Sequence record: LC788711.1
DNA length: 64,000 bases
From: Escherichia coli phage NG_S8
Reading direction: 5' to 3' (one strand)
The notes below the pieces were generated by a model. It ran no database searches. It was not told the origin of the DNA and saw only the letters and a program-made list of their open reading frames with translations. Positions 3,881 through 64,000 of this stretch are shown here, in pieces; within the stretch, counting starts at the first letter, position 1; each line of letters begins with the position of its first letter. The translations under genes were made by a program, and so were the position numbers.

Positions 3881-4276
3881 ATGGAACAAGTATTTTGGCG
3901 TCAGATAGATCCTAGTTTGGTAGAGCGTGCTGAGGGGCTCCTTGCACGTTGGTTGGGGGTTGACAAGGTTAGTGTAACATTTCCGTTTACTTCTGTAACA
4001 GACCCTAGTGTAGGAGTCTTTGTGGATGAAGATGAAGATGATGGTTGGGAAGCTGACTGGAATGAATTGTCCAGCATGGGCTTGATTGTTGCCCTCAACT
4101 TCTCTATATTCCATCCACGTGGCTTAGCCATTACACGTGACCCCGAAACTGGTGAATCCCCTTATCTTTTGCAAGTAGAAGATGATATTTGGGAGTACAC
4201 CGAAGATATTCTCGAAGAAGCTAAAGGTCACTTAAATCGCATTGGGATCTATGTCCCAGGCCTAAATGATGATTGA
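3881..4276 (+). CDS. hypothetical acidic protein (131 aa), paralog of previous gene
   Basis: RBS AAGGAGG; acidic stretch DEDEDDGWEADWNE; shared C-terminal motif with upstream ORF. Confidence 0.65.
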   Translation: MEQVFWRQIDPSLVERAEGLLARWLGVDKVSVTFPFTSVTDPSVGVFVDEDEDDGWEADWNELSSMGLIVALNFSIFHPRGLAITRDPETGESPYLLQVEDDIWEYTEDILEEAKGHLNRIGIYVPGLNDD

Positions 4277-4367
4277 TTTTCATTAGCCCAATCCTGATTA
4301 CCGAGTCATTTTGGCTCGGTTTTCTCTGTGCTCAAAGACACTGATAGCACCTTCGGAAAAATTTTAC

Positions 4368-4396
4368 TTGCAGGATGCTCAAAATCTTGATATAAT
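4368..4396 (+). promoter_or_regulatory. sigma70-type early promoter (extended -10 TGATATAAT)
   Basis: -10 TATAAT 4391-4396 with upstream TG; -35-like TTGCAG. Confidence 0.5.
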
Positions 4397-4892
4397 ATTT
4401 ATATTGAATTGAGAGACATTAGTAAAAATTGATTTTGCTAATTTTTCTTGTTTACAATCCGCAATACGGAACAGTTAGGCTGCCCCATTAAGGGTTGTTT
4501 TAACTATTACTAGTGTTTATACTGCATTAGTTAATTATCAATTAAGTGATCTGCGTACCCTGAATTCGGAAAGGTAAATCCAAACCGTGCATATTTAGCT
4601 CGTTATATAGGCAGAGCTTTATATGGGGGTGCGAACGAAAAGAGCAGCGAATGGTGACACGTCCAGTAGCCACCTACCAATAGGATAGTGAGGGCAATCA
4701 GAATCGGCTTAGCGGCCAATGACCTAGGTTCTGATCTGGATAAGAGTTAAGAGAGCGCAGCACTGAGGTATGATAACTTATTCATACTGCTTGATGGTGA
4801 TTAATGTTTGTGTAAATGGTAGTAATAGTTGTTCTATTCTTTTGAATAGTCCTAAAGAAAGATATCCGAATAACCAACATAGGAGTATTGTT

Positions 4893-7682
4893 GTGTTCTC
4901 AATCCTACAAGGTCACGCAGGATTTTCCAGAGATAAAGCCACTGGCATCTGGAAAGAGATCAAAGTGGAAGATTACACCTTTGCAAAGCGATTCTCTAAA
5001 GAGCATCCAGAAGGTAAACCAGCTTCCATGCCCTTCAAATTTGATGTACTTGAAGAACTTGACCCGCAAAACCTTGCTGAAATGTTACCTATCATGCGTC
5101 GTCTTACCAAAGACCCGCATATTGTAGCTATTCGGGGTAAGTGTCTAGCTCCAAAAGATAATGTGCGTCGTACCAGAGGAAACTTTAACGTATCCAATCC
5201 TAGTCATATTATTGCTATGGACGTGGATGGTATTGTAGATACTGGTGGCTATGACAAGTTTAATCTTGTTGGCATGGCACGTCATATTATTAAGATGTTG
5301 AATAGTATTAGTGAGGATATGTTTCCTCTTGATGCAGGGTTTATTGCCCATGCATCGTCTTCGGCTGGATTAAAACCAGGTATCCGAATGCACTTAATGC
5401 TAGAATCTAATGTCAAGGTAACGCAGGGACAGTTAAAGTTCTTATTTACATCTATCAATGATAGTAGTAAGCAAAAGTACGGCTTTGATATTGCTGACTT
5501 AGCTTATTATTCTTCTGTTCAGCTTCACTATTTCGCAGATCCCTTATTTGATGATGGTATAGTCGATCCGTTTAAAGCGGAGAATAAACCACGTCTTGTG
5601 TATGTTAAGGGTTCGAAGGTGAATCTACCTAATAACCTAGTTGACTTTGAAACAACTAGAGGTGAGTTTAAAGAAGAATTCTACTCCTTACTTGACCAAA
5701 TTAAAGGCAAGAAGGCTGCATCTGATAAAGTGGAAGAAACCATCAGCGAACTAGAAGAAGCTGAGGATGGGGTGTACCTGCGTATTATTCCAAAACTTTA
5801 CCACAGAGCGTTAGAAGATGGTGTTGACTTTACATGGTTAGAACGTGAGATTAAACCAGCTTTATCTGAATATATTGCAACTAAAGATAATAGTCGTAAT
5901 ATTCAAGATTACTTTAATAACGGTCGTAAGCAGGCTCTCAAAGCCTTTGTAAATAACTCCAAACGTGAGATTCCACCAAACTTAAAAGGTGTACCATTAA
6001 AACGTCTAGACACAGATTCTCCACCAGAAGTTCCATACCTGAAAATTAACATTGTACCACCAAAAGGACATTTAACATTTGTTAAGGCAAGTCTTGGTAC
6101 GGGTAAAACTACAGCAGTAACTAAGTGGCTAGATGCAGGTGTTCTTCCAGGAAACTTTATTGCAATCACAAATACTAGGGCACTTGTATCTTCTAACGCG
6201 AAGAAATTCGGTGCTGGTCAGTATGATAAGTCAGTTGATATGCTGAACTTCAAACGTGGTGCCATTGATCGTATGTCTTCAACTATTCACTCTATCCATA
6301 AGTTCAAGAGCTTTGTGGGTCAGATTGATACGATCTTTATTGATGAATGTGACGCAGTAATGAATGATCTGTTATTCGCTCCGGTTGTTAAAAACCGTCG
6401 TGAATGTATTCAGGTTCTTCGTGATATCCTTATTACTGCTAAAACTGTTATCTTATCCGATGGTGATATCAGTGCAGAAACGATTGAAGCCTATGGTTCT
6501 TTGATTGATTTTGATAAACCAGTCGCATTTTATAATCACCACCGTAAAATGCTGGCGAAAGCTCATGCTTATGAATTCCCTGATGAATCCAGTATTTGGG
6601 TTGCACTTCAAACATCTTTAGAGATGGGGGAGAAATCAATCCTAGTATCTGACTGTGGCCCGGATGAACTGAATGAGAAGGGAATGGCATTACGTCGTAA
6701 TACTGGTGCGTTAGTTAAAGAAATTCACTCAAACTCTACGTCTGATGTAGATATCCGACGTATTCTGGATTATACAACTAATGAGCTAATTGATCAACAG
6801 ATTGATTGTTTATTATGTAGTCCATCTGTAACGAGTGGTGTTGACTTTAACTATTTTGATAACGTATTCGTAATCACTAGAACCTCAAACCAAGCGCCAA
6901 ACATGCGTTTTCAAGCAATCAGGCGCGACCGTGGTGCTCAGAACATTTATTATTTTATTGATAAATCTACGAGTGGATTTTCTGCGGGTTCCGAGCAATA
7001 TAATATTGACGAAGGTTGGATTGAGTTAGCCCAACAACTGTACGCACGTCGTCGTGAGCTGGAATCTAGAAACTATACTAGTACTTTGCGTTATTATCTG
7101 CTTGATCAGGGTGCAACTATCGATATTTTCAGCGAAAGCTGGGGAACTATCGAAGGTGCAGGCAAAGAGTATACAGAAGAGCGAATCAAAGCTATTTTGC
7201 ACTCAACTCCTGAATATTGTGCACCACGTCATGCAGATGCCTATGAAGCCAAGTTACTTCTGGTTCGCTATTATCATCTGGATTCTATTAAAGATGTAAC
7301 AGTGGAACACGTTGAACAGTATATCAAGGATAAACCAAACGATAGAGCTGCATTCTTCCATAAGATGCACGACATGTTCTGGGAAGATATTAAAAAGTGT
7401 TCAAACGTAACAATCAAACCGTTTATCGAAGCTCTTAAGAATAAGAAGAAGGATTTCTTCCTTAAGACAGGTCAGAGCGCTAACCCAAAATATGCTCGTA
7501 TGTATCTTGGCATGATGGGTATCGGTAAAGATCTGGATACGGAAAAGATTGTGGACTGGTACAGAACTTACTGTAAGATCGAATGTATGCCGATTCCAGT
7601 TAAGTTTATGACAGATGAAGAACGTCAGATGCATGAGGAAGCTCTTGCTGAATTGGGGGCTAGAAATGACAGCGAAGAATAA
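4893..7682 (+). CDS. large replication-associated P-loop NTPase / helicase-like protein (putative origin-binding helicase)
   Basis: Walker A GTGKTT, Walker B FIDECD; start taken as GTG 4893 after AGGAG (first ATG at 4770 gives implausible N-terminus). Confidence 0.6.
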   Translation: MFSILQGHAGFSRDKATGIWKEIKVEDYTFAKRFSKEHPEGKPASMPFKFDVLEELDPQNLAEMLPIMRRLTKDPHIVAIRGKCLAPKDNVRRTRGNFNVSNPSHIIAMDVDGIVDTGGYDKFNLVGMARHIIKMLNSISEDMFPLDAGFIAHASSSAGLKPGIRMHLMLESNVKVTQGQLKFLFTSINDSSKQKYGFDIADLAYYSSVQLHYFADPLFDDGIVDPFKAENKPRLVYVKGSKVNLPNNLVDFETTRGEFKEEFYSLLDQIKGKKAASDKVEETISELEEAEDGVYLRIIPKLYHRALEDGVDFTWLEREIKPALSEYIATKDNSRNIQDYFNNGRKQALKAFVNNSKREIPPNLKGVPLKRLDTDSPPEVPYLKINIVPPKGHLTFVKASLGTGKTTAVTKWLDAGVLPGNFIAITNTRALVSSNAKKFGAGQYDKSVDMLNFKRGAIDRMSSTIHSIHKFKSFVGQIDTIFIDECDAVMNDLLFAPVVKNRRECIQVLRDILITAKTVILSDGDISAETIEAYGSLIDFDKPVAFYNHHRKMLAKAHAYEFPDESSIWVALQTSLEMGEKSILVSDCGPDELNEKGMALRRNTGALVKEIHSNSTSDVDIRRILDYTTNELIDQQIDCLLCSPSVTSGVDFNYFDNVFVITRTSNQAPNMRFQAIRRDRGAQNIYYFIDKSTSGFSAGSEQYNIDEGWIELAQQLYARRRELESRNYTSTLRYYLLDQGATIDIFSESWGTIEGAGKEYTEERIKAILHSTPEYCAPRHADAYEAKLLLVRYYHLDSIKDVTVEHVEQYIKDKPNDRAAFFHKMHDMFWEDIKKCSNVTIKPFIEALKNKKKDFFLKTGQSANPKYARMYLGMMGIGKDLDTEKIVDWYRTYCKIECMPIPVKFMTDEERQMHEEALAELGARNDSEE

Positions 7683-7899
7683 AAAGTGGGAAACAAGGAA
7701 GTTTTCCGTAAAAGAACGGAAAACTTCTGTTTACGATACTGCGGAGAAACTATGTAGGGTTGTACCACCTCGTCTCGCTGGCATCCCTAACGTCTCCATA
7801 TGGTTACTTAAACAACGGAAGACTCGTGTGTCTCTTCGCATTGGCTTTGAGTTAGATAAAGTCTATGCTGAACTTGCTTCTTTGCTCAAAGAATCGTAA
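7666..7899 (+). CDS. hypothetical basic protein (77 aa)
   Basis: In-frame ATG within ORF 7615-7899, overlapping stop of upstream gene; weak RBS. Confidence 0.35.
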   Translation: MTAKNKKWETRKFSVKERKTSVYDTAEKLCRVVPPRLAGIPNVSIWLLKQRKTRVSLRIGFELDKVYAELASLLKES

Positions 7900-7907
7900 A
7901 AATTTAT

Positions 7908-7943
7908 TTGCTTTTAGGAAAATTTTTCTGTATAATAGATTCA
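7908..7943 (+). promoter_or_regulatory. P_N25-like strong early promoter
   Basis: -35 TTGCTT 7908-7913, 17-bp spacer, -10 TATAAT 7931-7936, downstream ATAAATTTGAGAGAGGAG; matches remembered T5 P_N25 except two or three positions. Confidence 0.85.
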
Positions 7944-7967
7944 TAAATTTGAGAGAGGAGTTTAAAT

Positions 7968-8672
7968 ATGGCTGGTTCTCGTAGAAAGAAACTTATCCAT
8001 GAAATCCCTGATGAAACCTTTAAAAAGGTTATTGAACATCTGGAGAATGGTGGTACTAAGAAAGCAGCATGTGAAATGCTCGGTGTTTCTTCTAACCCAA
8101 CTATGGAACGAATGATCGAAGAATGGAGAGATCGTCAGGTTCAAGTTGCGGAAATGAAAAAGAAGAAGCGTGGAACACTGATTGAGGGTGTTGAGCTTGC
8201 AAACGTAATTGAACAGTATCTTTCTGGTGATTCTTTTGAAGAAATTGCTGATCGTAACTATCGTTCTGTAGCGATGATTAAATCTGTTCTGGAACGTTAT
8301 GGTGCTCTGCTTCGTTTAAACGATATTGTTGATCCATTGAATCCTCCGTTGATTCCTGATGATGCAATGGCAGAAGAATTTGAAGTTGGTGAACTTGTTT
8401 GGGTTCCTGGCTATCAGTGTATTGGTGAAATCAAGAAAGCAATGACTAACCCAGTTGGCTGCTACCGTGTTTGGTTGTTATCAGAAGGTAAACAACAGAA
8501 CGTTCACTATATGCACTACGAATTAGCTTCTGTTAAACATCTGGAAAAGCTGGGTGTTGATGTTAAGGCTCTGGGCTTTAAGTGGAGTCGTGAAGAAGTT
8601 ATCACGTTGGTTAATGAAGCTGTTAAAGCTGCCCTGAAACTAGATAAAGAGAAAGGAAAACGTCGTGAGTAA
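7968..8672 (+). CDS. hypothetical protein with N-terminal HTH-like region (234 aa), first gene after P_N25-like promoter
   Basis: RBS GAGAGAGGAG; ACEMLGVS helix-turn-helix-like segment. Confidence 0.7.
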   Translation: MAGSRRKKLIHEIPDETFKKVIEHLENGGTKKAACEMLGVSSNPTMERMIEEWRDRQVQVAEMKKKKRGTLIEGVELANVIEQYLSGDSFEEIADRNYRSVAMIKSVLERYGALLRLNDIVDPLNPPLIPDDAMAEEFEVGELVWVPGYQCIGEIKKAMTNPVGCYRVWLLSEGKQQNVHYMHYELASVKHLEKLGVDVKALGFKWSREEVITLVNEAVKAALKLDKEKGKRRE

Positions 8673-8901
8673 ACTAACTGATCTGTTAAAAGCTGGAGAC
8701 GTAAAATATCTCCAGCGAACTAGTTGGGAAAATAATAAAGATTACACAGTAATCCTGAAATTCTTTGTAGATAGCAATACCGTACGCCAGTACGTGTGGA
8801 TGCCTTTTGATACATCATTATTCCCAAGTGATGAAGTGTGTGAACTAACCCTAGAAGAAGCCCTGGCCGACGATTGGGAGATCGTTGAACTAGATGTGTA
8901 G
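8665..8901 (+). CDS. hypothetical protein (78 aa)
   Basis: GTG start overlapping upstream stop; RBS AAAGGAAAA. Confidence 0.45.
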   Translation: MSKLTDLLKAGDVKYLQRTSWENNKDYTVILKFFVDSNTVRQYVWMPFDTSLFPSDEVCELTLEEALADDWEIVELDV

Positions 8902-8921
8902 CAGTTACTGAAAAATTTCAG

Positions 8922-8950
8922 TTGCTTAATCCTGTAATTCTTGATATAAT
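8922..8950 (+). promoter_or_regulatory. sigma70-type early promoter
   Basis: -35 TTGCTT 8922-8927, 17-bp spacer, TGATATAAT. Confidence 0.6.
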
Positions 8951-9008
8951 ATTCTCATAGTTTGAAAGAACTATTCTGTTTAATTCTTAATTAAGGAAAT
9001 CGAAAAAT

Positions 9009-9419
9009 ATGACTACTCCAACTCAGTGGACTGATGAACTGTTCGAAAAAATGTCTTCCGACTACGTTGCTCGTATGGAGCAATTCCCAGAAGATGAGCG
9101 TCCGGGCGTTAGCATGGAAATTGTTAGCGAAATTGCTCAGGAAAATGGTGTAACTCCGAACGGTTTCCGTATGAAGCTGACCAAAGCAGGTCTGTATATC
9201 AAGAAAGCTGCTGGCTCTACTTCTAAATCAAGCGCATCTACTGGAGAAAAAGCTTCTGGTGGTTCTCGTACTTCCAAAGCTCAGGCTCACTCCGATCTTC
9301 GCTCCGCATTCTCTGATGCTGGCTTAGCCCCGGACTTCCTGGACGACGCAATCATCGACAAGCTGACCGGTAAAGCAGCTGCTCATCTGGCAGAAGCTAT
9401 CCGAGCTATCACTAAGTAA
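9009..9419 (+). CDS. hypothetical protein (136 aa), codon usage suggests high expression
   Basis: RBS AAGGAAAT; biased codons (CTG, GCT, CGT). Confidence 0.65.
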   Translation: MTTPTQWTDELFEKMSSDYVARMEQFPEDERPGVSMEIVSEIAQENGVTPNGFRMKLTKAGLYIKKAAGSTSKSSASTGEKASGGSRTSKAQAHSDLRSAFSDAGLAPDFLDDAIIDKLTGKAAAHLAEAIRAITK

Positions 9420-9455
9420 TTCTTAGATAAATCCACCAACACAAGGAATACAGTT

Positions 9456-9752
9456 ATGAATAAAGCTGAAATTATTGCTCAATGCGAAAAATTTGGTGAG
9501 TTTTATCTTCATTACGAAAAACTTCGTCAGAAAGGAACCACGTACCTTCAGGGTACGATGGAATTTGATCCAGCTCAGGATAAATACCTGGCTGAGCGTA
9601 TTAAACGTGAGCGCATCCGTAAGCCGAAAGAAGATGAAATCCTCGTTTTCTCTCGTACTAACGATAGCTTCCGTTTCATTCCTGTTGCGAAAGTTCGCCG
9701 TGTGACGAGCCTCCAGTCAGAGTTAGATCGTGCTTCTCCAGTAGGCCGATAA
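9456..9752 (+). CDS. hypothetical protein (98 aa)
   Basis: RBS AAGGAATA; followed by terminator hairpin. Confidence 0.6.
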   Translation: MNKAEIIAQCEKFGEFYLHYEKLRQKGTTYLQGTMEFDPAQDKYLAERIKRERIRKPKEDEILVFSRTNDSFRFIPVAKVRRVTSLQSELDRASPVGR

Positions 9753-9762
9753 GAAACCAATT

Positions 9763-9788
9763 AGCCCCTATATGGGGCTTTTTGTGTA
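9763..9788 (+). terminator. rho-independent terminator
   Basis: Stem AGCCCC/GGGGCT then TTTTTG. Confidence 0.6.
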
Positions 9789-9802
9789 TTTGGGATATGT
9801 AA

Positions 9803-10111
9803 ATGAGCGATCAGGTAAATCAAAACTATGAAGGACACGTTGACGACCAGTCCATCATGCTTTGGGAGAAGGAGGGGGAACAAGTAAGACTAACCGTATC
9901 TGAATTTCGTGGGAATCTATACATGGGAATTCGTTACTGGCTCCAAGATATTACTGGAGAGTGGTTTCCAACGAAATCCGGCTTCTCTTTTCCTTATACC
10001 CTAGAAACTACATCACAGCTATTCTACGCTTTTACGCAAATCCTCAGTGAATCCGAGGTCTTGCATGAAGTACAGAAACGAGCTGAAGAACTCAAAGCCA
10101 AGAATGCCTAG
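9803..10111 (+). CDS. PC4/p15-like ssDNA-binding fold protein (102 aa), tentative
   Basis: Size and pattern LWEKEGEQVRLTVSEFRGNLYMGIRYW resemble PC4-like domain; by eye only. Confidence 0.45.
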   Translation: MSDQVNQNYEGHVDDQSIMLWEKEGEQVRLTVSEFRGNLYMGIRYWLQDITGEWFPTKSGFSFPYTLETTSQLFYAFTQILSESEVLHEVQKRAEELKAKNA

Positions 10112-10128
10112 TTCTTGGCTTTTTCTTT
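10096..10128 (+). terminator. rho-independent terminator
   Basis: Stem AGCCAAGAA/TTCTTGGCT then TTTTTCTTT. Confidence 0.7.
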
Positions 10129-10138
10129 ATAAATGTAC

Positions 10139-10167
10139 TTGCTTTCGACTCAGTTTTCATATATAAT
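10139..10167 (+). promoter_or_regulatory. sigma70-type early promoter
   Basis: -35 TTGCTT 10139-10144, 17-bp spacer, -10 TATAAT 10162-10167. Confidence 0.6.
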
Positions 10168-10196
10168 ATTTATATAAATTGATGAGAGGATCAATT

Positions 10197-10397
10197 ATGG
10201 CAATGACAATAACACTTCCAAAGATTCAAGCAAAACTTAATTTGCTCTCCATAGCAAGAATCAATTACCAGGATAGTATCGGCACTCCAAACCAGAAAGC
10301 GTACAAAGATGCGTGGTTGAAAGAAGCTGCTGATTTAGCTGGTATGGCTGCTCAGTATAATAAAGAACTCAAAATGGAAATCGCAGACGATGAATAA
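10197..10397 (+). CDS. hypothetical protein (66 aa)
   Basis: ATG 10197 after GAGAGGA; downstream of promoter. Confidence 0.5.
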   Translation: MAMTITLPKIQAKLNLLSIARINYQDSIGTPNQKAYKDAWLKEAADLAGMAAQYNKELKMEIADDE

Positions 10398-11361
10398 TGT
10401 AAAAGACTTTATCAAACGTTGTCAAGAAGCGTACTACCAGGGAATGAGTCTTATTTCCGATGAAGAATATGATCGTCTGATTAAAAGATTCCCACTAGAG
10501 GAAGAAATCGGACCGAAAGGTGATATCCCTCATTTGTATCGTATGTATTCTTTACAGAAAGTCTATTACGATCGTGGTGATAAAGCTCCATTTAACCCAT
10601 TAGGTCAGGTTGAAACTGATAAGTTAGATGGTTGTGCGATTTCTCTATTATATATTAATGGTGAATTTGTTCAAGCGTTAACTCGTGGTAACGGTATTCT
10701 AGGGAATGATGTAACGCATAATGTTAAAATGCTGAACATTCCCAAAACTATTTCCCAAAAAGTACCAACTCAAATCACTGGTGAAGTTCTCATTACTAAA
10801 GAAGTAGAGAACAAACGTAACTACGCTTCGGGTGCTATTAACCTGAAAGATAGTGATGATTTCATGCAACGTATTGGTGAAGGTGGTTTAATCTTCGTTG
10901 CATATGGTATCCAGTGTTCAGCGGAAACAGTCGGTATTACAGAAGCCTATTTAAAAGATATGCTTTGGCTAGAGAATGAGAACTTCTTGACAGTTATTAA
11001 TGTTCGTTCCTTCTTTAAATGGATTCCGACAGATGGTAAAGTTGTTCGCATTAACGACAACAATAAATTCTTCCGTGAAGGTTGGACTAATAAATTTCCT
11101 CGTGGTGCATTTGCTATTAAAGAGGATGAAGAAGGCGAAATTACCACACTTGTTAAAGTTGAATGGCAAGTAGGGGCTTCTGGTAAAGTAACTCCAGTTG
11201 GTTATTTCGAACCGGTGATTATTGATGATGCCACAATCGTTAAAGCAACTCTTAATAACGTTGATTATATTAACGCTCTCGATTTAGAGATCGGTTGCCA
11301 GATTCGAGTGATTCGTGCTGGTGGTGTAATCCCTTGTATAGTAGAGCGAGTATACGACTAA
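10390..11361 (+). CDS. NAD-dependent DNA ligase, N-terminal adenylation part (323 aa)
   Basis: KxDG adenylation motif (KLDGCAISLLY) and OB-fold region; ends at stop 11359-11361. Confidence 0.8.
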   Translation: MNNVKDFIKRCQEAYYQGMSLISDEEYDRLIKRFPLEEEIGPKGDIPHLYRMYSLQKVYYDRGDKAPFNPLGQVETDKLDGCAISLLYINGEFVQALTRGNGILGNDVTHNVKMLNIPKTISQKVPTQITGEVLITKEVENKRNYASGAINLKDSDDFMQRIGEGGLIFVAYGIQCSAETVGITEAYLKDMLWLENENFLTVINVRSFFKWIPTDGKVVRINDNNKFFREGWTNKFPRGAFAIKEDEEGEITTLVKVEWQVGASGKVTPVGYFEPVIIDDATIVKATLNNVDYINALDLEIGCQIRVIRAGGVIPCIVERVYD

Positions 11362-57951: not shown

Positions 57952-58203
57952 TTATGCGATAGCTTGCCATTTATCATCTTTCTGAATGATTTTTACAACG
58001 TCGCCAGATTTAACACGGACGTTATAAATAGGCTTGCCGTGGTTACTGCGTTCCGTTTCCGCATAGACCGCTTCAATCTTATCAAAGGGATCAAGCGCCG
58101 CACCTTTAATACGTTCGGCTTTTCCGGTTAATTCATCCGTTTTAGTTACAAAAGGAATGAATACAGATTGACCTACTTTCGGCGCGGTAATAACGTTTTG
58201 CAT
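57952..58203 (-). CDS. hypothetical protein (83 aa)
   Basis: ORF in pre-early-like block. Confidence 0.5.
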   Translation of the reverse strand: MQNVITAPKVGQSVFIPFVTKTDELTGKAERIKGAALDPFDKIEAVYAETERSNHGKPIYNVRVKSGDVVKIIQKDDKWQAIA

Positions 58204-58334
58204 TTTTAATACTCCGGTTTATTGGGGATTATTCCACAATAGCGCCTCGATACTTTGAAACGCTATTAGATTATAATCCGCTAGGAGTTAGCCTAAACAT
58301 TACCGTTACCCAAATTTTTAAAGAGCAGTTACTA

Positions 58335-58360
58335 CAGGGAACATCTTAAAACCTATCGGC
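58335..58360. repeat. left copy of 26-bp inverted repeat (CAGGGAACATCTTAAAACCTATCGGC)
   Basis: Reverse complement matches 58620-58646 at 24/26 positions. Confidence 0.8.
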
Positions 58361-58367
58361 TAGCGTG

Positions 58368-58586
58368 TTAAGCGTTTTTTAAACTTTTTTCGATTTGATG
58401 GGAGTTATATAAATCAATCATTATATTACGCCACACCATTTCCAGACCTTGCTGCTTGCCTTTCTTGTATTGCTTGAATCGGTATTTTACCGATCGTTGC
58501 GCTACTGTCAACAAATTTTTTGTTCTGCTATCTAATGCACTAGCAGGTTTCGCACTAATCACTAAAGCGTTTTTTGATTTGATCAT
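58368..58586 (-). CDS. small basic protein (72 aa), flanked by 26-bp inverted repeats
   Basis: ORF rich in K/R/Q; TATAAT-like element within 20 bp upstream on minus strand. Confidence 0.5.
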   Translation of the reverse strand: MIKSKNALVISAKPASALDSRTKNLLTVAQRSVKYRFKQYKKGKQQGLEMVWRNIMIDLYNSHQIEKSLKNA

Positions 58587-58619
58587 TATCGTCGATTCCT
58601 TATATTATATAAGTTTACC

Positions 58620-58646
58620 GCCGATAGGCTTTAAGATGTTCCCTAG
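58620..58646. repeat. right copy of 26-bp inverted repeat (GCCGATAGGCTTTAAGATGTTCCCTAG)
   Basis: Partner of 58335-58360; adjacent 12-bp direct repeat TTTTTAAAGAGC also at 58315-58326. Confidence 0.8.
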
Positions 58647-59318
58647 TTTTTAAAGAGCGCGGCGGTAAACTTCCCCGCCGTGTAGTTCGTCATTGCCGCC
58701 CTACGTGATAAATAATAGGAGAATACCGAGAAGGGCGCAACCTTATTTTTGTAAAGAAACGTAAAGACAAACGCCACTGCACCACGTCCAGCGGCGCACT
58801 AAATTTAATGAAACGGGCGCGCGAATAACACCAAAACAACCATTTTAGCAAGTAATTTTTTCATTTATATTTGCTTTGCCCTACTTGACAAAATCTAAAA
58901 TCCTCGTGGTGAGGTTTTCTCGGTGTACCCCTTATGATTGCCTATCTTTTCCTTTGAGGCGCTTAGAATGCGTTACAGAGCGTTTTAGACCCTGTTAATA
59001 ACTTATACAAAAAGCAAAAATGAAATTTAATGAGTTATCCACTTGATTTTTCAAAAAAGTATTTTCTGCTATTATTTTTCATTGACAAATAAGTTTAGAC
59101 GTGCATTGATTGGTTAGCAGACTAACAATCGCTAGGATGATAATCACGCTGGTGGATTGTAACAGCTGAAACAGTTAGCAGACTATTAATACTCTAAAAA
59201 CCTATTAGCCAACTAACTATTTCATATTATATAATATACTTATAAATTAAAGAGAAATAATAACTATAAGAAACTATCGGCTAAGTGAGAACCACTATCA
59301 TTTAGGTTATTCACAAAG

Positions 59319-59376
59319 TTATCCACAGCACAAAATAACTTGACGCAATAGGCGACGTTTTGGCGACTTATCCACA
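59319..59376. promoter_or_regulatory. pair of perfect DnaA boxes (TTATCCACA at 59319-59327 and 59368-59376) plus near-matches
   Basis: Exact 9-mers; near-matches TTATTCACA 59308-59316 and TTATCCACT 59033-59041. Confidence 0.6.
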
Positions 59377-59396
59377 GACTTATATACAGGTTATCC

Positions 59397-59416
59397 TACT
59401 GTATAAATATACAGGG
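59397..59416. promoter_or_regulatory. LexA (SOS) box-like palindrome TACTGTATAAATATACAGGG
   Basis: CTGT-N8-ACAG with AT-rich spacer, close to E. coli consensus TACTGTATATATATACAGTA. Confidence 0.55.
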
Positions 59417-59663
59417 TAAATAGGTAGCAGTAACAACCGCAATCAAATTTAAGCGGCCTAGAACGCATTCTAAGCGATTTTCTCACTGCTACCCTTATTA
59501 TAATAAAGCCTTGTGTACGCTTACAGAGAGCTAGAAATAGAAAACGCGCGGTTATCATAAAAACAGGCAGTAAGCAAGAAATAAAAAACCTTTTCTTTTT
59601 TCTTGCCCCTAGCGAACAATTATCTATATCATTCACTCACCGATTAACGAGGGAGACAAAGAA

Positions 59664-60683
59664 ATGTCTACTGTAAGAATTGCAGTACCAGCAAACGCCA
59701 CTATTATTAAGGGTAGTTTGCGCAACCTGCTAGATGGTAGTAGTGCGGCAAGCGTACAACATACCGCTACTATTGTAGAAAAGATTCACGATGAAATTTT
59801 AGACAATAATGATACTCATTATTCAGTTGATGATTTCACGCTATTACTAGACCAGACAAGGGCGCTAGTAATTTTCAACCGTGATTATCACATTTTCCGT
59901 AATAGTCGGGGAACTGATATTGATTTTATCATTGTTGGTTATAGTGAGTCTCATAGTGGTTACATTGCGCGATTATATAACGTGCAAGAAAAAGAGCAGG
60001 TAACAGCAACAAAAGTAAATAATATCAGACTGGATAGTGTCGGATCGTTATTAAATAGTATCTGGCGTGAATTATCATCCAGTTATAAAGGTGCTGATAG
60101 TGACGCAATCGAAACAACTGGCGTATTGTGTTTTGAACGCGGTAGCGGTAACATGTTGATTCCTAACGATTATTTAGAGTATGGGAATGAATCAAACGTT
60201 GCAAACGCTGGATTTACACTTTTCCCGCTTGACAATGTAACAAAACAGGCTGTAAACTCTCAAACTTCAAGCGCAATTGCGCAAACTACTGAAAATAAAG
60301 GAAATAACACTATGTCTAAAGTAACCGCTATCGTTGCCGCTAATAAATCCGCCGCCGCTACCGCTGCAAAACTGGAAGCGGGTAAAGTAGCACTAACTCA
60401 GCTTACAAAAGTAGCGGCTAAAGCCCTGCCTTCTGGTATGGCTGGCATGTTCGCTAAACAGTATTTAGATACTCCGGTCGGGCGCGTTGTTGTTGCCAAC
60501 TTGTTAAATCTGGCAATCGAACAATACGCACCGAATAACCAGAAAGCGCGAATTGTTGCTAAAGCCGCAATGGATGCCGCAATGCTGGAAGTGGTACAGA
60601 GTTTCAATATTTCTGAAATGATCGACAAGGCAATCGAGGGAATCAACATTGATGCTTTGACTGCTAATATTTCAGAAGAGTAA
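59664..60683 (+). CDS. hypothetical protein (339 aa) with Ala-rich helical C-terminal half
   Basis: RBS GAGGGAG; first gene of plus-strand block after 1-kb non-coding region. Confidence 0.65.
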   Translation: MSTVRIAVPANATIIKGSLRNLLDGSSAASVQHTATIVEKIHDEILDNNDTHYSVDDFTLLLDQTRALVIFNRDYHIFRNSRGTDIDFIIVGYSESHSGYIARLYNVQEKEQVTATKVNNIRLDSVGSLLNSIWRELSSSYKGADSDAIETTGVLCFERGSGNMLIPNDYLEYGNESNVANAGFTLFPLDNVTKQAVNSQTSSAIAQTTENKGNNTMSKVTAIVAANKSAAATAAKLEAGKVALTQLTKVAAKALPSGMAGMFAKQYLDTPVGRVVVANLLNLAIEQYAPNNQKARIVAKAAMDAAMLEVVQSFNISEMIDKAIEGINIDALTANISEE

Positions 60684-60741
60684 TAATAACAAGCGGGAAT
60701 TAATTTTCCCGTTTTCTTCCCTTTTAGTTAGGAGACTAATT

Positions 60742-61233
60742 ATGTTTGGTAGCAGAAATTATGGCAACCCTATTGAAGCACGATCCCTTAATCATGACGC
60801 AATTGTATTCACTCATGCGTCTACCGGTTATTGTGGATCAGATGGGAATGATTATCATTTCGTTCCCGCTGGTGACGATATTGATGATCTATGTAATGAG
60901 GCAGGTTATGAAAATGCTTGCTCTTATGGTCTAGAAGTTATTGAAGTAGACGACGGCGAATATGAGGATAATGATAATATTGAATGCTCCGCTTATCATT
61001 ATCAGTTAAGTGAATCAGGTTGTTATATTGGCGGCGGCGATCCTATTAATTCCATCACTGAAATAATTATTGAAAATGGTGGCGTTTCGCTGAATGGTAA
61101 CAAGGCGTTACTATATGCAAACCGATTAAAGCAACTTGTATATATTCCTGATGGGAAAGAATGGGAAGAATACAACGTTCTAATTGCAGAATTGAAAAGC
61201 TGTTTCGGCGTGGAAGTGGTAGAAATAGCCTAA
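60742..61233 (+). CDS. strongly acidic protein (163 aa), candidate DNA mimic
   Basis: RBS TAGGAGACT; about 32 Asp+Glu against about 7 Lys+Arg. Confidence 0.65.
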   Translation: MFGSRNYGNPIEARSLNHDAIVFTHASTGYCGSDGNDYHFVPAGDDIDDLCNEAGYENACSYGLEVIEVDDGEYEDNDNIECSAYHYQLSESGCYIGGGDPINSITEIIIENGGVSLNGNKALLYANRLKQLVYIPDGKEWEEYNVLIAELKSCFGVEVVEIA

Positions 61234-61341
61234 TGTAAAGTTTTGTAAAGGTCGCCTATTATGGCGGCCTTTTTTGTTATAATGCCTTTACACCGAAACG
61301 GTGGATTGAAAATTTTCCCTGATTTCTAGGAGGCGTTAAAA

Positions 61342-61572
61342 ATGGTTGCTTTCTCTTCTTCTGACTCTCTTTTCACTGGTAAAGGTTGGGTATCTAATCG
61401 CTGGATTATTGATCAGATGGTTTCTGAATTTGGGATTGGTAAAACTTATGTTACCATTCAGGCGCTTTATGATAATGATCAGATTGATCAGCAAACCGCC
61501 GGATTTTTGCTGGACACGTTGAAAGCAGAACATTGCACTAAAAAGCAAGCGGCAAAAATCGTTTTAATGTAA
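61342..61572 (+). CDS. hypothetical protein (76 aa)
   Basis: RBS CTAGGAGG. Confidence 0.55.
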   Translation: MVAFSSSDSLFTGKGWVSNRWIIDQMVSEFGIGKTYVTIQALYDNDQIDQQTAGFLLDTLKAEHCTKKQAAKIVLM

Positions 61573-61619
61573 TTATTAAAAGGGGGTATATTATCCCCTA
61601 AGTTCTAGGAGCTAATAAA

Positions 61620-61769
61620 ATGGTTATTTTTCGATCTATTCTGGCTAGTATCTTGGGCGCTATTTTATCGCTGTTTGTAATAGCTTTCGGCGTTCACGTG
61701 GTTATTATTGGAGCAGGTATCGCGGGGTTTTCTTACTTGTTAGGCTGTATGACTGGTAAAGGGGAATAA
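61620..61769 (+). CDS. small two-TM membrane protein (49 aa)
   Basis: RBS CTAGGAGC; hydrophobic segments ILASILGAILSLFVIAF and VVIIGAGIAGFSYLL. Confidence 0.5.
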   Translation: MVIFRSILASILGAILSLFVIAFGVHVVIIGAGIAGFSYLLGCMTGKGE

Positions 61770-61771
61770 AA

Positions 61772-61984
61772 ATGTTAAAGAATGTTTCCCTTGCCCGTTC
61801 CAAAGGTTTTAAGCTGGTGGATGTTAACACGTTCGAGCGTCCAGATTGTAAAATCGAATATGTAGCACGCAACAAAAACGCTTTCCGTGTTACAGAAAAG
61901 AAATTTGACAAGCGGGGCAATTTGGTAGCCGAAACGATTAAACACTTTGCCACCTTTTACGCTGCATTTCGTGGGGTATTATGA
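61772..61984 (+). CDS. hypothetical protein (70 aa)
   Basis: RBS AAAGGGGAA. Confidence 0.5.
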   Translation: MLKNVSLARSKGFKLVDVNTFERPDCKIEYVARNKNAFRVTEKKFDKRGNLVAETIKHFATFYAAFRGVL

Positions 61985-62082
61985 GATCCTTATATATTGC
62001 TCTAGCGTTTGCTACCGTTGGCGTTATTTGCTCATTCGCTGCATTTGTTTTAAAAATGTACCTGATATTTTCCCAGCTTTAG
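61981..62082 (+). CDS. small hydrophobic protein (33 aa)
   Basis: ATGA overlap with upstream stop; single TM-like segment. Confidence 0.3.
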   Translation: MRSLYIALAFATVGVICSFAAFVLKMYLIFSQL

Positions 62083-62093
62083 GAGCTTGACAA

Positions 62094-62438
62094 ATGGTAA
62101 TTTATGAGGGCAATCGCTTTATTACTAATTGCCGTCCGGCATTATTAGCAAACTATTTAAATCAGCTTTCACCAGTTTATAAAGGCGTAGTTAATATCTA
62201 TGAGGGCAAAGCACATTATAAAATTTCTGCCGTTGTCGCCCGTGAACTAGCGTTTCAATTTTTAACTTTTGGGTCTTGTGACGTTCAGGTTATGGGGGAA
62301 GCGTTAATAGCGGAAAATGAAAATGAATTTATTGACATTTTCCGCAAAGTATGTACGGAGCGCCTGATTATGAAAGGCGCATATATTCAATCAACCGCTG
62401 AAAGTATTGAAACAGCGTTTCGAAAGGTGGCGCAATGA
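62094..62438 (+). CDS. hypothetical protein (114 aa)
   Basis: RBS TTAGGAGC. Confidence 0.55.
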   Translation: MVIYEGNRFITNCRPALLANYLNQLSPVYKGVVNIYEGKAHYKISAVVARELAFQFLTFGSCDVQVMGEALIAENENEFIDIFRKVCTERLIMKGAYIQSTAESIETAFRKVAQ

Positions 62439-62635
62439 CTAAAGATGAAGCACTAGAAAAAATGAAACAAGGTTTCAAAGTTAGTAATCAATATTTTACT
62501 AGCGATGAATTTTTGTACATGAAAGAAAACGGCGTGATCATGTCAGAAGATGGTTACAATTTTAATGATTGGTTTTTCAATATTCGCAAGGGGGAGGAAT
62601 GGAAGCTAGACGGTTGGAGCGTTTACCGTGAATAG
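62435..62635 (+). CDS. hypothetical protein (66 aa)
   Basis: ATGA overlap with upstream gene. Confidence 0.5.
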   Translation: MTKDEALEKMKQGFKVSNQYFTSDEFLYMKENGVIMSEDGYNFNDWFFNIRKGEEWKLDGWSVYRE

Positions 62636-62761
62636 CTGGTGGCGAAAAACACAAAGCCATAAATCTAATAATACCGCTGGGAAACATTCCCAGCGTTTAC
62701 GATTTGGTAATGGCTTTACAATGATATTGATAATCATTCTCATTCTAGGAGCGATGGCGTT

Positions 62762-62956
62762 ATGAGTGATAAAATTGTTGTAACTAAAACTACTGTTACC
62801 GTTGATACTTTCTTTGTGCCTGATACGCTGGAAAATCGGCAAGCGGTGGAGCGTGGCGATTATGATAAAGTGATTTATGATAACGATGGTTACTACCAAC
62901 ATTTGGTAGACTCCTACGGCGAAAGCGAAAAGATCACACATCGACTACCAGACTAA
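62762..62956 (+). CDS. hypothetical acidic protein (64 aa)
   Basis: RBS CTAGGAGC; followed by hairpin plus T-run. Confidence 0.5.
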   Translation: MSDKIVVTKTTVTVDTFFVPDTLENRQAVERGDYDKVIYDNDGYYQHLVDSYGESEKITHRLPD

Positions 62957-62962
62957 TAATAA

Positions 62963-62990
62963 CGGGGCCGATAGTTGCGCCCCGCCTTTT
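62963..62990 (+). terminator. terminator-like hairpin after last gene of plus-strand pre-early block
   Basis: Stem CGGGGC/GCCCCG then CCTTTT. Confidence 0.45.
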
Positions 62991-63102
62991 CTGCCTGCAA
63001 ACAAATTTCCCCTTATTAAAGTACCTCCTCCAAAAATAAACGCGTTAGGATGCGTTACAGAGCGTTTTAGAGCTATATTAGAGTTATTCACTACGTAGGA
63101 AT

Positions 63103-63122
63103 ACTGTATAAATATACAGTAG
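63103..63122. promoter_or_regulatory. LexA (SOS) box-like palindrome TACTGTATAAATATACAGTA
   Basis: Matches consensus at 18 of 20 positions, both CTGT/ACAG half-sites perfect. Confidence 0.6.
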
Positions 63123-63202
63123 AATAACCTGTTGATAAGTCTGTTGAAAACGCCTCAAAACCGCTAGGATTTTGTCAAATCAAATCGTGCTGTTAATAAA
63201 CC

Positions 63203-63211
63203 TGTGGATAA
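63203..63211. promoter_or_regulatory. DnaA box (TGTGGATAA, reverse orientation)
   Basis: Exact reverse complement of TTATCCACA. Confidence 0.5.
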
Positions 63212-63232
63212 CTTAAATAACAGTGTTTCTCA

Positions 63233-63388
63233 CTTCGCTTTCTAAATGCGACTCATTCTCATTATGCGACTCATTCGTACTCAACTCTGTAAAGGATAAC
63301 CATTCTCATTCCGCTTTCTAAATGTGAATCATTATCATTCGCATTCAACTTCTCAAATGCGAATCAATCTCATTATCATTCGCATTTC
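63233..63388. repeat. three degenerate ~36-40-bp direct repeats with internal palindrome AAATGCGAAT...ATTCGCATTT
   Basis: Units starting near 63233, 63311 and 63349. Confidence 0.7.
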
Positions 63389-63424
63389 GGCAGGCAGGGC
63401 ATTTTCATTTTGCCCTGCGCTTTT

Positions 63425-63992
63425 GTGCAAATCCGACATTTGCCCCCACGGATTACGTGCCAGCGTGCATGTGCGAATCCGACAATTTTTGGTAGTGTGC
63501 AAATCCGATGGGAAATATTTTTTATATGTGCGAATCCGACAATGAATTTTCCTAAAAACTCCAGCAATCAGCAACTGCGATGCAATCCAGCTGGATTTAC
63601 TAGAGTATGTGCAAATCCGACATGAGTTTATTTGTGCAAAACCGACAAGATTTTTGTGACTTCGATGAGAGGGTGTGTGATTGTGTGGGTTTGGGGAGAA
63701 GTGCGAATCCGACGAGGTTTTTGGGAGGAACTATGGAGGGTGCAGCTGTAGTGGTGCTTCAGCACCGGTTTGCTGCGTTTTTGGGGATAATGTGGGATGT
63801 TTTGGCTAGAATTGAGATTAGTGGAGATAAAGCGAAATTTTATTAGCAAAATGGGGCAAAATCGCTTGACAAGTGAAAATTCCTGTGGATCTAAAAAACT
63901 CAGGCAAATATGGGCCTTCGGCCCGAAATAATGCTGCTATTTTCAGTGTTCCTAAAAACTTTGGAGACTCCTATCAATGTGCAAATCCGACC
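63425..63992. repeat. array of eight direct 14-bp repeats, consensus GTGCRAATCCGACA, irregular spacing
   Basis: Copies at 63425, 63471, 63497, 63528, 63609, 63634, 63701, 63979, all same orientation. Confidence 0.85.
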
Positions 63993-64000
63993 ATAAATTT

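Follow-up and report, generated by a model that had tools for sequence, protein, structure and literature searches.

A1 and A2 are the pre-early genes that define the two-step DNA transfer of T5-type phages, and the host factor that stops T5 DNA once 8% of it has entered the cell is unsettled, with DnaA as the sole recent proposal. Here we describe an inverted pair of DNA modules that frames an accessory pre-early gene block in Escherichia coli phage NG_S8 (record LC788711.1; the 64,000 nucleotides (nt) that were analyzed are referred to as the window). The pair is almost certainly T5 anatomy that was already known, rediscovered in a close relative of sequenced phages. Each module carries paired DnaA-type boxes and a palindrome that resembles an operator for the host protein LexA; the palindrome recurs across the Demerecviridae, and the block between the modules has been inverted in two lineages.

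The closest described system is T5 itself, with repeats known from the annotation of Wang 2005 and from the records AY587007 and AY692264. In the T5 record AY587007, inverted repeats (IR) C and D are annotated at 6022-6152, their counterparts D' and C' at 9332-9462, and a 20-base-pair (bp) palindrome D at 9330-9349. The T5 st0 record assigns 9140-10144 to the "injection stop signal". In a comparison of 25 T5-like phages, Davison (bioRxiv 10.1101/866236) described a 131-bp element, IRD'-spacer-IRC', and its inverted partner, in which DnaA and near-DnaA boxes, eight in all, are paired at a distance of 3 bp and the spacer is fixed at about 52 bp; the element is strongly conserved, whereas the gene block between the copies is poorly conserved. 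In the same study, palindrome D (PalD) figures only among several palindromes considered as possible cut sites of a hypothetical A1/A2 nuclease, and two-step transfer is said to have been demonstrated in T5 and BF23 only. The stop needs no phage protein synthesis and is absent in vitro with FhuA proteoliposomes (Davison, bioRxiv 10.1101/866236), which together argue for a host factor in the stop. The T5 element lies 150-300 bp to the left of the point at which the first-step DNA shears.

The T5-type module pair in phage NG_S8

A sequence search aligned window positions 58800-64000 with T5-like Salmonella phages at 97% identity, in a part of those genomes that lies roughly 5.2-10.4 kilobases (kb) from the left end; in Salmonella phage EH3, the counterpart occupies positions 5252-10449 (97% identity). 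This stretch carries a terminal-repeat annotation in the relatives, and the region is a T5-like phage's long terminal repeat, i.e., DNA of the first transfer step. Within it, a repeat finder returned an inverted pair at 59280-59427 (module 1) and 63091-63238 (module 2), whose 148-nt arms are 72% complementary, lie 3663 nt apart, and align to each other almost free of gaps (Table 1). An earlier annotation of this DNA (the original prediction) had pointed to inverted similarity between 63100-63190 and 59330-59420; the similarity is real and larger than had been proposed. The same prediction held that modules with LexA-type and DnaA boxes bracket the plus-strand block 59664-62956, and they do, with eight open reading frames (ORFs) between them. 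Its reverse-orientation DnaA box, TGTGGATAA, is found at 63203-63211 exactly as claimed. Its SOS box is indeed near-perfect (19/20) and lies at 63102-63121, not at 63103-63122, and its direct repeat, GCGTTACAGAGCGTTTTAGA, is present twice, one base away from where it had been placed (58970-58989 and 63052-63071). What the prediction missed is that the modules are the known T5 pair IRC-spacer-IRD/IRD'-spacer-IRC', the second copy of which sits inside the annotated injection stop signal.

When the two modules of the window were aligned with the two T5 copies, no gaps interrupted the palindrome, the two box pairs, or the spacer in the four-way alignment. Palindrome D of T5 reads TACTGTATAAATATACAGTA, identical to the box in the window, and its T5 partner reads CACTGTATAAATATACAGGG. 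Module 2 and palindrome D are part of T5 Repeat Region 3, the left part of the non-coding injection stop signal region, and module 1 is the IRC-spacer-IRD of T5 Repeat Region 2. The likeness to the T5 injection-stop region extends to the position after A1-A2 (dmp-A1-A2 in T5) and an accessory block, to the 20-mer palindrome with four paired DnaA-type boxes per copy and their spacing, and to the downstream repeats and the nick octamer. Three differences stand out: the window has eight DnaA-type boxes, compared with seven in T5; it is without the HNH gene that splits Repeat Regions 1 and 2; and its block has extra ORFs of 163 and 66 amino acids (aa) and a DUF7566 protein that is 38-47% identical to that of T5.

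The DnaA-type boxes have a regular geometry. Boxes within each pair are 3 bp apart, about 40 nt separate the two pairs of one module, and of the eight boxes over both modules, four match the consensus and the other four deviate from it at one position. Counted over the whole window, boxes with the DnaA consensus show no enrichment (6 versus 7.7 expected); four of these six fall in the two 148-nt modules (Poisson P about 6e-8).

About 30 nt from each LexA box, on the block side, lie three helically phased 10-bp units. A 27-nt direct repeat with 96% identity (58963-58989 and 63045-63071) forms part of these triple units, and the 10-bp motif is recognizable in Klebsiella, Pantoea, Aeromonas, and Vibrio phages. 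The copy beside palindrome D carries no T5 annotation (about 4768-4800 in locus L001), whereas the others are T5 inverted repeats B and B'. The A2 protein is one candidate binder of the 10-bp units.

The LexA-like palindrome and its conservation

The box at 63102-63121 is a CTGT-N8-ACAG palindrome close to TACTGTATATATATACAGTA, with an AT-rich center and TA flanks. At three or fewer mismatches, the 20-nt LexA consensus matches solely this site and its module 1 partner in 64 kb, where 0.00 matches are expected (100 shuffles), and the core pattern CTGT-N8-ACAG occurs four times in the window versus 0.93 expected. We scored both boxes with a LexA matrix built from an uncurated set of twenty E. 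coli operators. The module 2 box reached 28.6 bits, above all twenty of these operators, with a heterology index of about 0.9, and the partner at 59397-59416 had an index of about 3.8 with the same matrix. Palindrome D is a predicted consensus LexA operator, and LexA probably binds to the box in vivo.

Relatives were anchored on A1, and not on the box itself, which gave 37 loci taken from IMG/VR. These loci, together with those of more distant Demerecviridae, led to several observations. First, every A1-anchored locus with enough upstream sequence (27 distinct genomes) has two boxes at the expected places; in close relatives, the distal box is almost invariant and the proximal box is sometimes weakened (e.g., CTTGTAT). 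Second, strong boxes are present at the distal position in more remote phages whose A1 proteins are 73% down to 32% identical to that of the window: Klebsiella phages IME260 and Sugarland (Sugarlandvirus), Pantoea phage AAS21, Pectobacterium phage My1, Proteus phage Stubb, Aeromonas phage TS3, and Vibrio phages pVp-1, ABurr, 70E35-1, and PG07. In these distant Demerecviridae, the boxes lie between genes, where the accessory pre-early block has its edges, and a LexA-like box is found at the equivalent position in every Demerecviridae lineage sampled; simulated sequence yields 0.007-0.03 such matches per locus. Third, in records that annotate the ends of the terminal repeat, the right end is 0.2-1.0 kb beyond the distal box.

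Variation within the box is restricted to the four central and the outermost bases, and these are operator positions at which LexA tolerates change. At the A2-proximal position in Proteus and Vibrio phages, the DnaA boxes have been lost and the LexA box has been kept; hence, the LexA box is at least as universal as the DnaA boxes. The hosts of A2 homologues, among the matches listed, are Enterobacterales and Vibrio, and these bacteria share one LexA motif. The A1-bearing phages of Rhizobium and Agrobacterium were tried as a comparison with a different LexA motif and rejected: they are Autographiviridae in which A1 belongs to the replication module, with no A2 or terminal-repeat region. In Proteus phage Stubb (L041), a third LexA-like box, CACTGTATAAATAATCAGTG (4015-4034; 19.3 bits), falls within an annotated gene of the block and may be either chance or an additional site.

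The four bases at the center of the box are AAAT or ATTT in close relatives, with no AATT or ATAT intermediate among about 27 genomes. The two states are interspersed among near-identical phages: phage L002, for instance, whose A1 is 97% identical to that of the window, has a flipped distal box. The pattern resembles what repeated inversion of a hairpin loop, or gene conversion over a very short tract between the inverted copies, would leave. As a single strand, the module folds modestly better than shuffled sequence (z = -3.0), with the palindrome hairpin dominating, and a search of 58000-64000 for RNA elements gave no Rfam match at E <= 1.

The searchable literature on T5-like phages and Demerecviridae yielded no link between LexA and T5, although an older mention (Heusterspreute 1987, Wang 2005) is possible. 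Neither "LexA" nor "SOS" occurs in the text of Davison (bioRxiv 10.1101/866236), and a 2026 T5 preprint on pre-early genes makes no mention of LexA.

Inversion of the accessory block

The block between the modules includes a 339-aa ORF that encodes a DUF7566 protein, a homologue of the non-essential 37-kD pre-early protein of T5, and a 70-aa ORF that encodes a homologue of the T5 abasic-site-nicking endonuclease. In 27 close relatives, the distance from box to box spans 1606-4076 nt (the window has 3705) and gene content differs, and wherever a close-relative locus retains block genes, they lie on the opposite strand from A1. Whether the block is present, absent, or inverted in related phages was a question raised by the original prediction, which had seen in the arrangement a cassette and possible recombination boundaries. 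In Sugarlandvirus (IME260, Sugarland, and K7_rec17, three independent genomes) and in Pectobacterium phage My1, the block is inverted and its internal gene order is kept: homologues of the 339-aa and 163-aa proteins, and in My1 of the 64-aa protein too, follow in the same order on the same strand as A1/A2. Davison (bioRxiv 10.1101/866236) had noted that the My1 and Sugarland ORFs point in the opposite direction and described the region as replaced. We find that the block of My1 and Sugarland is a true inversion with gene order kept, not a replacement.

In Sugarland, the inner flank of module 1 is an 81% match to the module 2 inner flank of the window when the latter is reverse-complemented. 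This match puts the breakpoint at or next to the LexA box, as expected of recombination between inverted arms. The inner flanks of Pantoea phage AAS21 are ambiguous, given that the likeness between its two modules is almost as strong as that between the modules and their counterparts. There was no recombinase in the PHROGs or Pfam matches of the eight block ORFs, A2, and a 72-aa ORF, and the close relatives have one orientation; we therefore rejected an active invertible cassette. Because the block has been inverted with its order kept, the repeats have served as recombination sites during evolution. The cassette idea thus holds on an evolutionary scale, where the repeats acted as recombination boundaries, and fails as an active switch.

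Several features of the window lie beside these subjects. The 66-aa ORF of the block (62435-62635) matches the Pfam Thoeris anti-defence Tad2-like domain at 17.8 bits, under the cut-off of 25, and is found in 3 of 37 close-relative loci; it may be a variable anti-defence gene. Positions 7898-7962, far outside the pre-early region, give a 98% match to the T5 PN25 promoter sequence, which is used in pQE-type expression vectors. PN25 was also considered for a TTGCTT-containing stretch near 58870 and rejected, as PN25 maps to 7898-7962. That stretch (58870-58914, plus strand) has a promoter-like TTGCTT/TTGACA sequence followed directly by a terminator-like hairpin (CCTCGTGGTGAGG and a T run), is situated in non-coding DNA between the leftward genes and module 1, and may give a very short transcript or nothing. 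Meanwhile, the proteins A1 and A2 are 100% identical to those of Obesumbacterium phage Ob_P (PQ664488.1), unlike the DNA from 58800 on, which is closest (97%) to Salmonella phages EH3 and 1-29. Ob_P-like A1/A2 beside EH3/1-29-like DNA may reflect a mosaic or a record cut within the repeat.

Table 1. Coordinates of the module pair, its motifs, and neighboring features (window positions, except for the inverted blocks of relatives, which are given in their own loci)
Feature	Position	Strand	Remarks
LexA-like box TACTGTATAAATATACAGTA	63102-63121		counterpart of T5 palindrome D; 19/20 match to LexA consensus
LexA-like box TACTGTATAAATATACAGGG in module 1	59397-59416		3 mismatches to LexA consensus
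Module 2	63091-63238	+	equivalent to T5 IRD'-spacer-IRC'; from repeat finder and alignment to T5 Repeat Region 3
Module 2, IRD'	about 63104-63144		
Module 2, spacer	about 63145-63195		
Module 2, IRC'	about 63196-63234		
Module 1	59280-59427	-	inverted partner; equivalent to T5 IRC-spacer-IRD
First DnaA-type pair, module 2	TGTTGATAA 63130-63138; TGTTGAAAA 63142-63150	-	each 1 mismatch to TTWTNCACA
Second DnaA-type pair, module 2	TGTTAATAA 63191-63199; TGTGGATAA 63203-63211	-	1 mismatch; consensus
DnaA pairs, module 1	59307-59315/59319-59327; 59368-59376/59380-59388	+	
Triple 10-bp unit (about GCGTTNNAGA)	63042-63071	+	30 nt from LexA box, block side
Triple 10-bp unit, inverted copy	59451-59480	-	T5 IRB' type
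Triple 10-bp unit, further copy	58960-58989	+	T5 IRB type; direct relative to 63042-63071
Direct repeats of about 37 nt	63227-63400	+	directly right of module 2; position of T5 direct repeats C and palindromes E to J
Octamer CCCTGCGC	63413-63420	+	same as annotated T5 "major single-stranded nick 1, 7.9%"
Eight copies of TGTGCRAATCCGAC	63422-63992	+	T5 "direct repeat D"
Accessory pre-early block	59664-62956	+	eight ORFs
A1, 555 aa	55197-56864	-	pre-early gene, context
A2, 138 aa	57249-57665	-	pre-early gene, context
Inverted block, Sugarland (L048)	6116-9216		
Inverted block, IME260 (L039)	4102-6960		
Inverted block, My1 (L050)	8019-10487		

Proposed function and comparison with known systems

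Judging from its motifs, we lean modestly toward the element being a docking site for host proteins on the first-step DNA that would help the injection pause. The incoming DNA would present, in order of entry, the three 10-bp units, the LexA operator, and the two DnaA-box pairs. Host LexA and DnaA would bind the element as soon as it enters the cell, and the bound element would help to hold the DNA at the cell envelope, or pause it there, until A1 and A2 have been produced. The proposal adds LexA to Davison's DnaA model as a second candidate host partner. The inverted copies, for their part, have recombined and so flipped the accessory block in some lineages, and the conserved flanks let the content of the block turn over. 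A role of the element in the injection pause, taken by itself, is a tentative suggestion that we rate a little under even. We are more doubtful of the fullest version, in which LexA is a real part of a protein-DNA complex on the first-injected DNA, palindrome D is selected throughout the Demerecviridae, and its occupancy aids the pause or the pre-early program.

A number of points weigh against this proposal. The stop signal has been placed in this sub-region by position alone (shear point near 7.9%), and we found no binding or injection experiment on the element in the searchable literature. The partner copy, 3.7 kb upstream and with the same motifs, does not stop transfer, and a viable T5 mutant deleted from hegG to 017 is probably without that copy. 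An equally good stop-signal candidate is the set of D repeats farther right, which during the pause would sit in the tail or at the portal. One mismatch separates half of the DnaA boxes from the consensus. With sequences aligned on the box, each position carries 1.53 bits of information inside it versus 0.37-0.49 in the flanks, a contrast that is partly circular because the conserved boxes were picked with our uncurated matrix (ascertainment). Lastly, recA laboratory strains are T5-sensitive; hence, RecA-driven cleavage of LexA is not required for the second transfer step or for release of the pause.

The alternative that survives best, and which we still consider unlikely, is that the boxes are paired transcriptional operators, at which LexA, possibly with DnaA, represses or insulates promoters at the block edges and thereby makes expression of the block, or antisense expression, SOS-dependent. 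The original prediction likewise offered paired regulatory sites, which are possible. The boxes are always intergenic, at the two edges of the block and on the inner side, and outside these phages LexA operators act, by definition, on transcription. In Proteus phage Stubb and Vibrio phage pVp-1, a TTGACA/TTGACT hexamer directly adjoins the A2-proximal box, and in the window, a weak promoter-like sequence on the minus strand (TTATCA-16-TATATT, 63138-63111, 9/12 match) overlaps the module 2 box. However, we found no convincing promoter at either box: promoter-like matches in the region are no commoner than in shuffles (21 versus 15.9 +/- 4.1), and TATA-like sequence is inherent to any LexA box, so promoter scans tend to catch it. 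In none of the copies is the conserved TTGACA/TTGACG of the spacer accompanied by a usable -10 element 16-19 nt away. We do not favor the promoter reading, as the consensus scan returned weak matches at background frequency. Furthermore, the annotated or mapped T5 promoters (P-D/E20, P-H22, and one before the 37-kD gene) are elsewhere and overlap neither palindrome D nor its partner, and module 2 follows the block terminator and has no further gene on its right within the repeat.

Less likely again is that the palindrome and its neighbors are a target of A1/A2, which would cleave or bind them and thereby free the paused DNA, in the manner of Davison's restriction-enzyme model, so that the likeness to a LexA operator is incidental or competitive. 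A2 is a dimeric DNA-binding protein needed for the second step, Davison lists PalD among the candidate cleavage palindromes, and the triple 10-bp units are as deeply conserved as the box. No nuclease activity has been demonstrated for A1, however, and the box matches the host LexA consensus at 19/20 positions. The CTGTAT/ATACAG that is critical for LexA is kept in phages whose A2 is about 40% identical, and variation is limited to positions that LexA tolerates. On the side of an A1/A2 target, the triple 10-bp units match no host site known to us.

It is improbable that the repeats are mainly recombination substrates, i.e., homology arms for inverting the block or swapping it between co-infecting relatives, with the motifs secondary. 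The range of block length between conserved flanks (1606-4076 nt), the order-preserving inversion in Sugarlandvirus and My1, and the Sugarland inner-flank match (81%), with its breakpoint at or near the LexA box, are all in line with such arms. But homology arms need no set sequence, yet the LexA box, the geometry of the DnaA pairs, and the 10-bp units persist where the flanks can no longer be aligned; in addition, all close relatives that retain block genes have one orientation, and the block has no recombinase. The operator, A1/A2-target, and recombination explanations are not mutually exclusive. Chance similarity has next to nothing in its favor beyond an AT-rich, non-coding region full of short repeats, and we reject it given zero expected LexA-consensus matches, a 148-nt inverted repeat, gapless homology to T5, and family-wide recurrence.

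As known anatomy, the element itself adds little; what is worth carrying forward is the family-wide LexA-like operator and the finding that the block is truly inverted in two lineages. If the LexA proposal is correct, it supplies the host partner that has been missing for this step since the 1960s, and the AAAT/ATTT flips and the block inversions would be by-products of a selected palindrome pair. That the best-conserved motif of the region is a predicted consensus LexA operator makes for a cheap and directly testable hypothesis, and T5 engineering makes the mutants feasible.

Compared with the SOS boxes of recA, sulA, umuDC, and colicin genes, and with the SOS sensors of mobile elements, palindrome D has the same CTGT-N8-ACAG, AT-rich center, and TA flanks, and it is nearer to the consensus than most of the chromosomal operators in our list. 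Unlike those boxes, it has no demonstrable promoter under it, sits in the first-injected non-coding DNA of a virulent phage, and belongs to an inverted pair, 1.6-4.1 kb apart, beside DnaA boxes. With oriC and DnaA-titrating clusters, the element shares several same-strand 9-mers close to TTATCCACA in fixed phasing; unlike oriC, it is not expected to function as an origin; the T5 origins have been mapped near the genome center (cited in Davison, bioRxiv 10.1101/866236). Finally, the arrangement recalls the Gin/G segment of Mu, the Cin/C segment of P1, and systems of the Hin type, in which a gene block likewise lies between inverted repeats and both orientations occur among relatives. In contrast to these, the phage locus has no invertase gene, and its arms are about 150 bp long, compared with crossover sites of about 26 bp. 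Its orientation is fixed within a genus and differs between genera only, which fits rare homologous recombination rather than a switch.

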